DNA of 64,000 nucleotides from a virus: IMG/VR virus record IMGVR_UViG_3300027977_000007; one strand, written 5' to 3'. Shown here one piece after another: positions 30,237 to 33,948 of this stretch (the stretch's first letter is position 1; every line of letters starts with the position of its first letter). The position numbers and the translations under genes are program-made. A model generated the notes under the pieces. The model did not search any database and was not told the origin of the DNA. It was given only the letters and a program-made list of their open reading frames with translations.

Positions 30237-30542
30237 ATGAAAGAGCAAATAAAAAACCTATTAAGAGAAGGATTACTTCAAAATAAAGGATTAGAAACAG
30301 CTTGCAATACAATGAGCGTGGCATCATATAAAGAAGGTATTGCTTTAATTATTAGTGCTATTGGTACACCAGAGCAAAATCCATCAATGTGGAAGCGTAT
30401 CGAGCGACCAATTAAAAACTGGCGAGATGCGGATAAATTAATTAGTCATGAAATTAAAACCAAGCGTATGTCTGGTGATTCAATGGTTGATGAGTCTAAT
30501 ACTTGGTGGTCTGCTGTTCAATCAACTATTTGTCCTAAATAA
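30237..30542 (+). CDS. small protein with IKNLLREGL N-terminal tag
   Basis: MKEQIKNLLREGLL, shared with other ORFs in the window. Confidence 0.65.
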   Translation: MKEQIKNLLREGLLQNKGLETACNTMSVASYKEGIALIISAIGTPEQNPSMWKRIERPIKNWRDADKLISHEIKTKRMSGDSMVDESNTWWSAVQSTICPK

Positions 30543-30556
30543 TTTTTTTGATTTAC

Positions 30557-30588
30557 TTGACAATTATTAATTTTATTAGTATATTTAT
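30557..30588 (+). promoter_or_regulatory. composite promoter (TTGACA-N17-TATATT; TTG-N20-TATATTTA; overlapping ATATTTAT)
   Basis: TTGACA at 30557-62, TATATTTA at 30580-87, ATATTTAT at 30581-88. Confidence 0.65.
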
Positions 30589-30591
30589 CAT

Positions 30592-31546
30592 TACATTAGC
30601 TCAAGTATCAGTCCCGACCAATAAAATGGTTTAGAGTTGTTAACGCAACAAAGGTATTGGTACAATAACAATAAATTAAAAAGTTAATAAACATGACACA
30701 AAAAATGATGGCACCTAATGTGCCAACGGCAAATATTGCTGTAAACAAATCTCGTATTAAATTATACGACAAGAATGTAGAAGTACCAACTTACTACTTG
30801 AAAAAAGGCCAAGAATTTCAAATTGAATTGGCAAACATGACTACCGATGTAGTCTTAGCAAAAATAATACTTAATGGTAAATCTTTATCTCAAGGTGGTC
30901 TGGTATTAAACCCAGGTCAGAGAGTCTTCTTGGACAGATACTTAGACGTAGCCAAAAAGTTCTTATTTGATACGTATGATGTGTCAAATACACAAGAAGT
31001 TAAAGATGCTATTAGAGATAATGGTGATATTAAGGTAGAATTCTATCGAGAAAATATCAACACCTATCAATCACCAATCGTTATTAGACCACTTGATTAC
31101 ACTTATCATCCTGATATTATAAGATATAATACTTATACATCAAATACTTATTGTGCCTCACAACCAGTGTTTGGTCGACCAAACACTAATGATAACACCA
31201 CACTAACAAGTACCTTAGGGGGTTATTCGTCTGGTCAGATTTTAACTTCGGCTTTATCAGCTAATAACTCACCACTTAGAGGGGTGTCAAAATCACTTGA
31301 AACTGGACGAGTTGAAAAGGGTTCTGACTCCAATCAAGAATTAACATCGGTTAATAAATCATTCTATTATCTACCATTCCATACGGTAACGTATAAACTA
31401 TTACCAATATCGCAAAAGATTAATACCCTTGAGGATATTAATGTAAAAAGATATTGCACATCTTGCGGTGCTAAGGTCGGTAAAACTGATAGGTTTTGCA
31501 GTCAGTGTGGGGCCAAAGCGTAAATAAAATAACTTGAGTTAATGTA
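30592..31546 (+). repeat. 15-bp inverted repeat flanking the zinc-ribbon gene
   Basis: TACATTAGCTCAAGT (30592-30606) vs ACTTGAGTTAATGTA (31532-31546): 14 Watson-Crick pairs plus one G-U. Confidence 0.85.
30693..31523 (+). CDS. hypothetical protein with C-terminal zinc ribbon
   Basis: C-terminal YCTSCG...FCSQCG; beta-rich N-terminal domain. Confidence 0.75.
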   Translation: MTQKMMAPNVPTANIAVNKSRIKLYDKNVEVPTYYLKKGQEFQIELANMTTDVVLAKIILNGKSLSQGGLVLNPGQRVFLDRYLDVAKKFLFDTYDVSNTQEVKDAIRDNGDIKVEFYRENINTYQSPIVIRPLDYTYHPDIIRYNTYTSNTYCASQPVFGRPNTNDNTTLTSTLGGYSSGQILTSALSANNSPLRGVSKSLETGRVEKGSDSNQELTSVNKSFYYLPFHTVTYKLLPISQKINTLEDINVKRYCTSCGAKVGKTDRFCSQCGAKA

Positions 31547-31547
31547 T

Positions 31548-31576
31548 AAAAAAAAGGAGCATAATGCTCCTTTTTT
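31548..31576. terminator. bidirectional rho-independent terminator
   Basis: A8-GGAGCA-TAA-TGCTCC-T6 between convergent genes. Confidence 0.85.
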
Positions 31577-32060
31577 ATTTGCTTATAATTTGTTGTATGT
31601 CATCAAAACTAACTGAATCATTTATATACCAGAATCTATCAGCATCTCTAAAAGTATCTTCACCATCAAAACCATTTCCTAAGATATAATTAGATGACCT
31701 AAATAAATACAAATCTTGACTATTATTATCCTTATGGTGCCATGCTATGTCAGTAATCTCATCTAGGGCTTTATTAAATGTTTCTTCATTATTAAAACCG
31801 TAACCACTTAAACCCCACTCTGGGTCAGAATTCCACATTCCACTAACAGGGTCTTCTTTTGGTTCACTTTCTAAATACACACCTTTAGATTTTCTTTCTT
31901 CATAATCAGCCATTGCTTCCTCATAGGTATCGTACCAAGCTTGCATATGTCCACTAAAATTACGTTCTATATCATTTTCTGGTGAATCAGTCCAACGTAA
32001 AAATAGCATCGTATCCTTATTTAAACCCTCTCTTAATAGCTTTCTTATAAGAACTTTCAT
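31575..32060 (-). CDS. acidic hypothetical protein with IRKLLREGL tag
   Basis: MKVLIRKLLREGLN. Confidence 0.7.
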   Translation of the reverse strand: MKVLIRKLLREGLNKDTMLFLRWTDSPENDIERNFSGHMQAWYDTYEEAMADYEERKSKGVYLESEPKEDPVSGMWNSDPEWGLSGYGFNNEETFNKALDEITDIAWHHKDNNSQDLYLFRSSNYILGNGFDGEDTFRDADRFWYINDSVSFDDIQQIISK

Positions 32061-32234
32061 TTTTTATACTTAATAATATTATCTTTATTTGAATTTTTAT
32101 CAAATTCATCTTTATCTATAAATTCCCACATATTATTTTCAGCCTTTCTTTTATAGTATAAATTAGAACCATCAATATCTCTAATTTGATATTCAAATTT
32201 GGATTCAACTAATAAACCCTCTCTTAATAGCTTT
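32022..32234. repeat. 22-bp exact direct repeat encoding the tag in two adjacent genes
   Basis: TAAACCCTCTCTTAATAGCTTT at 32022-32043 and 32213-32234. Confidence 0.85.
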
Positions 32235-32251
32235 TTTATATGTTCTTTCAT
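32057..32251 (-). CDS. small protein with IKKLLREGL tag
   Basis: MKEHIKKLLREGLL; ATATTTAT (32263-32256) lies 4 nt before the ATG. Confidence 0.65.
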   Translation of the reverse strand: MKEHIKKLLREGLLVESKFEYQIRDIDGSNLYYKRKAENNMWEFIDKDEFDKNSNKDNIIKYKK

Positions 32252-32309: not shown

Positions 32310-33902
32310 TTACATTATCAATTCGTACTTAAATAAACCACAATCCCATATTCTATCATAACCTAATTCGCTAGTCAATTCTTTCTCCGTTTTATTAAAA
32401 TCCATATTAGGGTATTTTTTCCTTATAGCGTTTTTACCAAAACCAAATTTGTGAAATCGTTTATGTTTATCTACTTTTGAATTATAATAGCAATAATTGG
32501 GTTTAACCAAACCAACTAGTTTAAACCCAATATTTGTGTAAAGGTTGTTATTTACATCAAGCGTCCAACGCCTATCAGCAAAACTAATTATATTTTTAGG
32601 TGAATAATCGTTTATAAATTGTTTTATGAATTTAGATGCCAACCCACTAATAATATAATTTTGCTTTGTTGCATATCTAGTTAATTCATATTCACCATCG
32701 TTAGTTTTTGTCATGTTACGCTTATTTGAAAAAGTCATTACACCTACTAATTCATTATTATAATAAGCCCCATAATTTATTGTTGAGTTATCATTACCTT
32801 GGATATGGTTTTCTTTTAAAAATAACCCTTTTTCTTTCCCGTTAATTATCTTGACCTTAACGTTTCTACCACCTATTTTAATACCATCATTTATTTTTAA
32901 TATGTGCTTTAATTTATTTTTAACTAATTCCTTATTAAGAACCCATTCATCCTCAAAAATATGTATTAATTTAATACCTATTTTCTCACAAGCCATTGTT
33001 TTATCTAAATGATAAGTAGAGTTTTTACCCATTTTTTCGGTGTGATAATATAATCCATTATATTCTATACCTAATTTAATTTTAGGTATTATTAAATCTA
33101 TCTCTTTACCGTTCAATAGTTTTCTATTTTTGCTCTTCTCAACACTAAAACCTAATTCTTCAATAAACTTTTTTATTTCAATTTCACCCTTTGATGTCCA
33201 GCTTGGTTTCATATTAATATTAGTTATTTTTATATTGTTTCTAAAAATAACAGACGATGATTCAGATATTAATTTATTATTAGGAAATAATAATTTATAG
33301 TCATTACTACTAATATTGTGTTTAGTTTTTAAATGTGTATTTGATATAAGTTTCATTTTTTTTCCACATAAATTACAAACAACATAATTTTTTTCGTCAA
33401 GGAATAACTCTTCTCTTTCTTTATTTTTTATTGTGGTTTTAAATATGTGTTCTATATTTATTTCTTTATCCTTTTCAACAATATCAAAATATACCTCAAA
33501 CCATTTTTTATTATTAACTAATTCATATTTTTTTCGTTGATAAGTGTTAGACGGAATTTTAATATCACCATAGGTATTTAAAATATGTCTAGTTAATGTC
33601 CCAGATAAATTATTTGGGTCATCAAACTCTATTTTTGTTTTTTTACAAATGGCAACTAATTTTTTATTGGAATTATTTATTGAATACAGTTTAGTGTTAG
33701 ATTTTTCAATATCATGACTATTACCAATTTTAACTTGCCCACCCTTTTTATTAATCGCTATAGAATGCTCAGTTAAAATTAATCTAATCCTATCATTACC
33801 AACTTTAAATAATTCACCAAGTTTATGTATACTAACTTTATCTTCTTCATATAATAAAATAATTTTTTTTATATCTTCTTCTGTTAGATTTGTTTTTGCC
33901 AT
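32310..33902 (-). CDS. Hef-like free-standing homing endonuclease (HTH + Zn finger + Vsr/DUF559-like nuclease + GNAT-like C-domain)
   Basis: CNLC...HLKTKH; EIDLIIP...GIEYNGLYYH...LIHIFEDEW; ELVGVMTF...YELTRY...SFADRR...RIWDCG. Start moved to MAKTN (33902) because a promoter overlaps the track start. Confidence 0.7.
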   Translation of the reverse strand: MAKTNLTEEDIKKIILLYEEDKVSIHKLGELFKVGNDRIRLILTEHSIAINKKGGQVKIGNSHDIEKSNTKLYSINNSNKKLVAICKKTKIEFDDPNNLSGTLTRHILNTYGDIKIPSNTYQRKKYELVNNKKWFEVYFDIVEKDKEINIEHIFKTTIKNKEREELFLDEKNYVVCNLCGKKMKLISNTHLKTKHNISSNDYKLLFPNNKLISESSSVIFRNNIKITNINMKPSWTSKGEIEIKKFIEELGFSVEKSKNRKLLNGKEIDLIIPKIKLGIEYNGLYYHTEKMGKNSTYHLDKTMACEKIGIKLIHIFEDEWVLNKELVKNKLKHILKINDGIKIGGRNVKVKIINGKEKGLFLKENHIQGNDNSTINYGAYYNNELVGVMTFSNKRNMTKTNDGEYELTRYATKQNYIISGLASKFIKQFINDYSPKNIISFADRRWTLDVNNNLYTNIGFKLVGLVKPNYCYYNSKVDKHKRFHKFGFGKNAIRKKYPNMDFNKTEKELTSELGYDRIWDCGLFKYELIM

Positions 33903-33917
33903 ATTTTTTATTTTATA

Positions 33918-33948
33918 CAAAGATACCAAATTAAAACCATAACGTCAA
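33918..33948 (-). promoter_or_regulatory. Bacteroidota-type promoter TTG-N20-TATCTTTG
   Basis: + strand CAAAGATA at 33918-25 and CAA at 33946-48. Confidence 0.75.

Follow-up and report, generated by a model that had tools for sequence, protein, structure and literature searches.

Co-varying complementary ends predict a long-range helix enclosing a zinc-ribbon gene in Lak-related huge phages

We analysed a 64,000-nucleotide (nt) stretch of DNA, hereafter the window, from the virus record IMGVR_UViG_3300027977_000007, a 97.6-kb IMG/VR record that is 29% complete. Positions 30,592 to 31,546 of its plus strand hold a gene for a 276-amino-acid (aa) zinc-ribbon protein that is bracketed by two complementary 15-nt arms, one at the predicted 5' end of the mRNA and the other between the stop codon and a terminator. 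A first-pass annotation, which drew on the letters of the window and its open reading frames (ORFs), had read the arms as a closing stem that acts at the RNA level, in mRNA stability, processing or translational control. The features of the locus, with the predicted helices named P0 to P3, are as follows (bp, base pairs).

30557..30585, plus strand: promoter, TTGACA (30557-62), a 17-nt spacer and TATATT (30580-85), with a predicted transcription start at about 30592
30592..30606, plus strand: 5' arm of P0, UACAUUAGCUCAAGU
30605..30663, plus strand: three-way-junction leader, RNAalifold consensus
30605-30615 with 30653-30663, plus strand: leader helix P1
30616-30620 with 30627-30631, plus strand: leader helix P2
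30636-30641 with 30644-30649, plus strand: leader helix P3
30664..30692, plus strand: A-rich translation initiation region without a Shine-Dalgarno sequence; it includes AGUUAAU (30682-30688), a box complementary to the 5' arm
30693..31523, plus strand: coding sequence (CDS), 276 aa (831 nt)
31532..31546, plus strand: 3' arm of P0, ACUUGAGUUAAUGUA, which begins 9 nt past the stop codon
31550..31576, both strands: intrinsic terminator, a 12-bp stem with a T-run

The two arms, TACATTAGCTCAAGT (30592-30606) and ACTTGAGTTAATGTA (31532-31546), lie 925 nt apart and are complementary at 14 of 15 positions. The sole exception, G30599 opposite T31539, is a G-U pair in plus-strand RNA. The first-pass annotation had given the same coordinates and the same 15-bp pairing with one wobble, and the sequence agrees with it exactly; the promoter that it placed just before the 5' arm and the terminator that it placed just after the 3' arm were likewise found, at 30557-30585 and 31550-31576. 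The predicted transcription start falls at about the first base of the 5' arm, and 3 nt separate the 3' arm from the terminator. Among the sigma-70-like matches between 26 and 36 kb, TTGACA-17-TATATT ranks first (11/12). The duplex of the arms (14 Watson-Crick pairs and one G-U) has a calculated energy of -18.7 kcal/mol, and a partition-function fold of the whole 989-nt transcript assigns probabilities of 0.98 or more to 13 of the 15 arm pairs and of 0.83 and 0.66 to the two terminal ones. The last two bases of the 5' arm, G30605 and T30606, are also the first two bases of P1.

Within the window, this run of 15 is the longest Watson-Crick/G-U match between the 101-nt 5' untranslated region (UTR) and the 53-nt 3' UTR, and 9 out of 5000 dinucleotide shuffles match it (about 0.002). 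It is also the highest value among the 82 ORFs of the window, the runner-up being 13. Inverted repeats of similar quality are present elsewhere within the same 1.3 kb, and after multiple testing the evidence from the single window is suggestive but not decisive. A search of the window with the arm motif gave no extra copies beyond chance.

Covariation of the arms and the adjoining leader

We compared the window with its relatives in two separately fetched sets of loci. Set 1 consists of 66 unique loci (the window and IMG/VR relatives) that share 38-58% protein identity. For each locus we took 150 nt upstream of the start codon and 90 nt downstream of the stop codon, the start and stop codons of the relatives being assigned automatically from tblastn; the covariation statistics were computed without tree correction. 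At least 10 Watson-Crick bp connect a site at about -100 relative to the ATG with a site at about +11 past the stop in 51 of these 66 loci. Their arms comprise 24 distinct 12-nt cores, among them tgcGTTAACta/taGTTAACgca, tgtGTTAACtc/gaGTTAACaca, ATCGTGATTGA/TCAATCACGAT and CGTAATTAAT/ATTAATTACG. Ranking whether a locus' own partner is its best partner proved to be a poor statistic, with many arms shared or consisting of A/T runs, and threshold and column statistics were used. Twelve stem columns, anchored by MAFFT and not fitted, have 78.3% of their cells paired, compared to 64.2 +/- 1.1% in shuffles (maximum 67.9, n=1000), and the covariation score is 0.366, compared to 0.158 +/- 0.013 after shuffling. 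When the partner columns are slid by 1-3 positions as a control, 27-37% of the cells are paired. The position of the arms relative to other signals is also regular: in the relatives the 5' arm begins at a median distance of 5 nt past the -10 hexamer and stops a median of 2 nt short of P1, and the 3' arm starts a median of 11 nt after the stop codon. Moreover, 59 of the 66 loci have a recognisable promoter, namely a -35-like hexamer and, 16-18 nt further on, a match of 5/6 or better to TATATT, and a hairpin with a T-run follows the stop codon in 56.

Set 2 was obtained by an alignment query headed by a distant homolog, which was used instead of a single-protein query with L007 that had given 3 loci only. 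It adds 80 loci with 35-43% identity to the heading homolog, 64 of which are unique with full flanks and were analysed; one member, L147, is the same contig region as the set-1 locus L031. At least 10 Watson-Crick bp are found at the same two places in 34 of the 64 loci. The arms of this set are GC-richer and have nothing in common with the set-1 sequences, as exemplified by AGGTGCCTTT/AAAGGCACCT, GAAACCTTGTT/AACAAGGTTTC, GAGCCTCGCTCT/AGAGCGAGGCTC, AAAGCCTCGTGT/ACACGAGGCTTT, GGAACCTCAC/GTGAGGTTCC and AAGTGGTGCCTAAC/GTTAGGCACCACTT. At the 10-bp threshold, true pairs account for 53% of the set-2 loci, compared to 5.5% for mismatched combinations of 5' and 3' flanks; over both sets, such mismatched combinations pair in about 5-13%. 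Taken together, the two sets contain 61 distinct arm pairs and 49 distinct arm 10-mers, and the median duplex free energy is -16.9 kcal/mol for a locus' own pair and -6.8 for mismatched pairs.

Since different, co-varying arm sequences stay complementary at the same positions in both sets, the comparison confirms that P0 pairing is under selection. Common descent appears unlikely to explain the complementarity, given the two sets and the many unrelated arms. The first-pass annotation had named homologous loci devoid of flanking complementarity as the result that would count against it; what we find is that most loci are complementary, at the same positions and with co-varying sequences. P0, as judged by this covariation, is conserved across many huge-phage lineages, in which it is predicted to close the whole cistron as a long-range RNA helix.

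P0 adjoins a second predicted structure, the three-way-junction leader formed by P1, P2 and P3. An alignment of 43 leader sequences has 98.3% of its cells paired, with compensatory double changes in 17 of the 21 pairs; none of 500 shuffles matches the observed values, and slid partners are 36-48% paired. Three G-U pairs are invariant in the 43 sequences, and two of them form a symmetric U-N-N-G / U-N-N-G arrangement in P1. The independent alignment of set-2 leaders gives much the same picture (93.4% of cells paired, 19/21 pairs compensatory). An alternative leader fold that pairs ACCAAUA with UAUUGGU was rejected, its helix being only 50% paired across the 43 sequences. A covariance model of the leader finds a single match in the 97.6-kb record, matches 59 of the 80 set-2 loci and also hits upstream of the distant homologs L001, L007, L004, L009, L077 and L087. 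Genes of this family are always preceded by the leader, even where protein identity has dropped to about 35%. Rfam 15, searched at E <= 10 over 30400-31700, returned no plus-strand match to the leader; its only matches are terminator-type chance ones at ~31500-31630, all far below gathering scores. A literature search found no description of the phage end-pairing element or of the leader motif.

P0 is contiguous with P1 in the window. Because it shares two bases with P1 there, and ends ~2 nt before P1 in the relatives, the two helices could stack into one of about 25-30 bp. In two loci with an insertion, the arms have kept their outer position, which is 915 nt (L057) and 1119 nt (L069) upstream of the ATG. 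These insertions are GIY-YIG homing endonuclease genes inside the 5' part of the homologous gene (L057:663-1361 and L069:294-1124). They carry a duplicated N-terminal gene fragment, and a second, divergent copy of the leader is seen in L057 and L059.

The length of P0 varies among clades. It is 12-15 bp in the clade of the window, 20 bp in L121 and 12+8 bp in L150 (both set 2), and in the clades where it reaches about 20 bp no terminator follows. One clade without P0 (L099, L101, L131, L105 and L134) carries a local hairpin of 6-9 bp instead, which lies 2 nt before P1 and ~60-80 nt upstream of the ATG and occurs in three mutually compensating sequence versions. Since this local compensating hairpin stands in for P0, the comparison suggests that what matters is the presence of a helix at the P0 position.

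The encoded protein and its neighbourhood

The only Pfam domain in the 276-aa product is a C-terminal Zn_Ribbon_1 (E 4e-7). AlphaFold2 (mean predicted local distance difference test score, pLDDT, 80) models an Ig-like beta-sandwich made of residues 12-120 plus 201-238, a disordered insert at ~125-200 and a C-terminal zinc ribbon at 254-275. Foldseek against the PDB gave nothing at E <= 0.001, and the VIA wide structure search returned generic Ig-like sandwiches only (Z <= 6.7). Atlas structure and feature searches with the protein hit viral hypothetical proteins only, a PHROGs search gave no match, and blastn against GenBank phages found no DNA-level relatives. At the protein level, matches of 34-37% identity were found in the Lak-A/B/C megaphages and in other 'uncultured huge phage' genomes, and more than 470 relatives are present in IMG/VR. 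Some lineages have a SHOCT domain in place of the C-terminal zinc ribbon on the same beta-sandwich body (L009:2465-3487 and Atlas clusters). The Lak-A/B/C homologs (L002, L003, L005, L006 and L008) contain in-frame TAG codons near the 5' end of the gene, which fits TAG recoding in Lak phages; the ORFs of the window read through under the standard bacterial code.

The surroundings of the gene are constant. In each of the 66 loci with a match to it, a 468-aa gene precedes the zinc-ribbon gene on the same strand, and in each of the 26 loci that extend far enough, a major capsid gene (PHROG major head protein) is encoded downstream on the other strand. Insertions between the 468-aa gene, the zinc-ribbon gene and the capsid gene consist of variable small ORFs and homing endonucleases. 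In Lak-related huge phages, the zinc-ribbon gene belongs to the syntenic core of the structural module and adjoins the major capsid gene.

Further details of the window concern this neighbourhood. A and T runs flank the terminator stem at 31550-31576, which makes it usable from both strands, and the terminator is common to a convergent ORF that ends at 31575. A GC-rich 6-bp hairpin (TGGCAC...GTGCCA, 30709-30725) covers codons 6-11 of the CDS, and its minus strand scores as terminator-like. Three small ORFs, at 30237-30542 (plus strand), 31575-32060 (minus strand) and 32057-32251 (minus strand), have near-identical N-termini (MKExIKxLLREGL...). Not all relatives have the 101-aa ORF between the 468-aa gene and the promoter. 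Finally, a 539-aa homing endonuclease (PHROG 3339, E 1e-91) is encoded at 32310-33929 on the minus strand, between the zinc-ribbon gene and the capsid gene; its C-terminus has Mom/GNAT-like similarity, and among the fetched loci a homolog is found in L059 only.

Function of the end helix and rival explanations

We consider it reasonably likely that P0 is an RNA-level end clamp which governs the access of ribonucleases, either by stabilisation or by RNase III-type processing. The two arms would form the long-range helix P0 and close the whole cistron, with the 831-nt CDS looped out, and P0 would thereby control the action of ribonucleases on the ends of the mRNA. Such control of mRNA degradation or processing is probably its role. 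Most likely, P0 would bury the 5' terminus together with the segment upstream of the terminator, so that the full-length message is stabilised, as in the hbs mRNA of B. subtilis discussed below. The clade with a local hairpin in place of P0 favours 5'-end protection or a structural role. For clades in which a P0 of about 20 bp has no terminator behind it, P0 may serve, in place of this or in addition, as an RNase III-type processing stem that excises or defines the cistron. RNase III stalks are expected to measure about two helical turns (at least ~20 bp); the 12-15 bp of the window's clade would extend to ~26 bp only if P0 stacks on P1. Searches of the 97.6-kb record for the families of RNase III, RNA ligase, RtcB, reverse transcriptase and resolvase had no match, which carries little weight at 29% completeness. 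Thanks to the co-varying flanks, the closing stem of the first-pass annotation stands as an RNA-level proposal that singles out none of its three functions, stability, processing or translational control.

Several observations weigh against the end clamp. P0 is absent in about a quarter to a half of the loci, and its absence from Lak-A/B/C, L001 and the L106 clade indicates, on sequence comparison, that it is dispensable in some lineages. Lak-A/B/C and L001 keep a P1-like leader pairing, as judged by eye, and the covariance model confirms the leader in L001 but not in the Lak-A/B/C genomes; the L106 clade has neither P0 nor the local hairpin. In six set-1 loci (L025, L036, L041, L054, L055 and L075), the leader and, for the most part, the 5' arm sequence are retained while the 3' UTR differs, and the retention of the arm sequence in the P0-less L025, L036, L041 and L054 hints at a second role for it. 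A recognisable terminator past the 3' arm is present in only 14 of the 34 P0-bearing set-2 loci, so a terminator-proximal 3' element is not general. The first-pass annotation had described the gene as monocistronic with a terminator, which holds for the window and its clade and fails to extend to most stem-bearing loci of these more distant clades. Moreover, all transcript ends, including the transcription start, are predictions, and the anchored column counts, which include the stem ends, show no clear excess of G-U over A-C.

Whether selection acts on RNA or on DNA bears directly on this reading. The non-Watson-Crick positions in the stem interiors of the 61 distinct arm pairs comprise eight G-U and one A-C (p = 0.04; the events are not fully independent). 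Because of this ratio, of the adjoining structure with its invariant G-U pairs and of the position of both arms inside the transcription unit, there is modest support for selection on P0 at the RNA rather than the DNA level. The annotation had taken the single G-U wobble of the window as a sign of RNA-level selection; the family-wide ratio lends this modest support, and the alignment-anchored counts leave it less clear. An inverted repeat that acts at the DNA level, be it as an operator pair, as the termini of a mobile cassette or as sites at which an invertible segment recombines, would be consistent with these anchored counts, with a complete gene flanked by inverted repeats and with the palindrome GTTAAC in many arms. 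We nevertheless think it very unlikely: the orientation of the gene is fixed relative to both the 468-aa and the capsid gene, the constant synteny is not that of a mobile cassette, and the arm sequences drift freely among clades, unlike what one would expect of a recombinase or repressor site. In addition, the 8:1 ratio in the stem interior and the contiguity with an RNA helix bearing invariant G-U pairs argue for RNA. An invertible DNA segment in particular was rejected, since every locus has the same orientation to both flanking genes. The resolvase family search of the record, a 29% fragment, had no match, tyrosine recombinases not having been searched for. Chance complementarity without function could be argued from the window alone, where the probability of ~0.002 per gene has to be set against 82 ORFs examined and comparable inverted repeats lie nearby. 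The covariation in two separately fetched sets, with its 61 distinct arm pairs, reduces this explanation to almost nothing, and we count it as refuted.

Two further explanations give the helix a different task. One is a translation-licensing switch, in which, as long as the 3' UTR is not yet transcribed or once it has been lost, the 5' arm pairs with the initiation region (the box AGUUAAU or, in other clades, the start codon itself); the stronger 3' arm would displace it, so that only intact full-length mRNA is translated. A 6-8 nt Watson-Crick/G-U match of the 5' arm to the 31 nt ending at the ATG is found in 97% of 59 loci, compared to 29.5% after shuffling. In the window, 30596-30602 of the 5' arm can form 7 bp, the same G-U among them, with a conserved box, AGTTAAT at 30682-30688, located 11 nt ahead of the ATG. 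The arms of other clades match elsewhere; in L078, L081 and L072, for instance, CGUGAUUA is complementary to UAAUUAUG across the start codon. The 5' arm core is, moreover, kept in loci without P0, and there is precedent in S. aureus, where the 5'/3' pairing of RNAIII and of icaR influences translation (PMC7821165). However, compared to the real initiation regions of 72 other genes of the window the enrichment is mild (median p 0.17; p <= 0.1 in 7 of 22 arm classes), and only 12 of 51 loci reach at least 3 expected bp between the arm and the initiation region in partition-function folds of the leader alone. The accessibility of the initiation region hardly changes (0.57 to 0.62) when the 3' arm is included, and the clade with a local hairpin in place of P0 needs no 3' partner. 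On balance, such a switch seems quite unlikely to us. The other explanation, to which we assign a low probability, is a protein-binding platform: P0 stacked on P1, the three-way junction and the invariant G-U pairs of the latter would jointly make up a protein site that P0 completes, the candidates being the zinc-ribbon product itself (autoregulation), a ribosomal protein or a double-stranded RNA-binding protein. Leader and gene are always found together, with one match in the 97.6-kb record and with homologs down to about 35% protein identity, and two of the three G-U pairs that are invariant in 43 sequences are symmetric in P1. Autoregulatory leaders with such strict linkage to their gene are established for ribosomal proteins and for gp32 and gp43 of phage T4, which the linkage seen here resembles. 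On the other hand, a generic Ig-like sandwich with a zinc ribbon gives no sign of RNA binding by the protein, and a binding platform is compatible with the end clamp.

A more far-reaching proposal, which we regard as unlikely, unites leader and P0 in a phage riboregulator of a new class. Here the 3' UTR would supply the strand that finishes the folding of the 5' leader, so that the mRNA is translatable or nuclease-resistant only at full length, or is excised from a longer transcript, or possibly circularised, at P0/P1. If so, the mRNA would 'know' its own full length through a 5' arm that switches from the initiation region to the 3' arm, and the element might also be read by the zinc-ribbon product of its own gene.

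The predicted end clamp is of interest beyond its mechanism. It represents a 5'/3'-UTR interaction that is backed by evolution, with dozens of independent arms complementary at fixed positions while the proteins are only 35-58% identical, and the leader ranks among the better-supported new cis-RNA motifs (17-19/21 pairs compensatory). For RNA biologists, this is a natural mutant series in which to ask what an mRNA end clamp does. Moreover, a gene beside the capsid gene, uncharacterised and very widespread in uncultured huge phages, is flagged as a candidate for unusual post-transcriptional control.

Comparison with known systems

The first-pass annotation had likened the arms to those of retrons and to the paired ends of type I toxin mRNAs, and both likenesses turn out to be analogies and not membership. 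The a1/a2 inverted repeats of retrons bracket a transcribed msr-msd unit, and the arms also bracket a transcribed unit. However, the record, itself only 29% complete, has no RVT_1 match and no ORF adjoining the arms is a reverse transcriptase, which agrees with the annotation's own remark that none is nearby; furthermore, the arms enclose a conserved 831-nt CDS, not a short non-coding msr-msd unit. In hok-type mRNAs, which are ~400 nt long, encode a toxin of ~50 aa and have an antisense partner, the ends pair by fold-back (fbi/tac). The extreme 5' and 3' ends of one mRNA are predicted to pair in the phage, too, but its mRNA is ~1 kb long and encodes a conserved 276-aa protein of the structural module, and no antisense gene was identified, a systematic search for antisense promoters not having been made. 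The product, a predicted soluble protein with a beta-sandwich and a zinc ribbon, is not a small (under about 60 aa) hydrophobic toxin, and assignment to the hok type was rejected.

Complementary sequences that flank 16S and 23S rRNA pair into RNase III stalks and loop out the whole functional unit. The phage flanks would similarly pair around a long RNA, with a P0 of about 20 bp in some clades. In contrast to the rRNA stalks, the phage unit is an mRNA, and P0 in the clade of the window is only 12-15 bp.

Pairing between the 5' and the 3' UTR of one mRNA is a known kind of interaction, represented by hbs, icaR and RNAIII (review PMC7821165). The phage element is of this kind, here joined to an undescribed leader motif without a match in Rfam. 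In icaR of S. aureus, the 3' UTR pairs with the 5' UTR of its own mRNA, and the duplex is a substrate of RNase III (PMC7821165). Like icaR and RNAIII, the phage element would pair the 3' UTR with the 5' UTR of the same mRNA. The icaR motif, however, pairs with the ribosome-binding site and represses translation, whereas in the phage the 3' arm would mainly meet the very start of the mRNA, ~75 nt before the initiation region, and a pairing that involves the initiation region itself is a weak secondary possibility.

The hbs mRNA of B. subtilis comes closest to the stabilising role proposed here. An A/U-rich helix of 14 nt and -19 kcal/mol connects its 5' UTR to the sequence just upstream of the terminator (PMC5737220), and this 5'/3' helix protects the mRNA from RNase Y, as tested with compensatory mutants (PMC5737220; Braun, Durand & Condon 2017). 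According to the review PMC7821165, conservation of the hbs 3' UTR does not extend to close relatives. The window offers the at least 10-14 nt of 5'/3' UTR complementarity and the pre-terminator 3' element that would mark an hbs-type interaction. The likeness extends to a helix of ~14-15 bp, mostly A/U and of about -19 kcal/mol, a monocistronic mRNA and a highly structured 5' UTR. There are also differences. The limiting of endonuclease attack has been shown for hbs, whereas the nuclease role in the phages, whose hosts are uncultured, is deduced from sequence. The hbs 5' element lies downstream of leader hairpins, while the phage arm lies at the extreme 5' end. Finally, in contrast to hbs, the phage helix co-varies across dozens of divergent phages and abuts a three-way junction.

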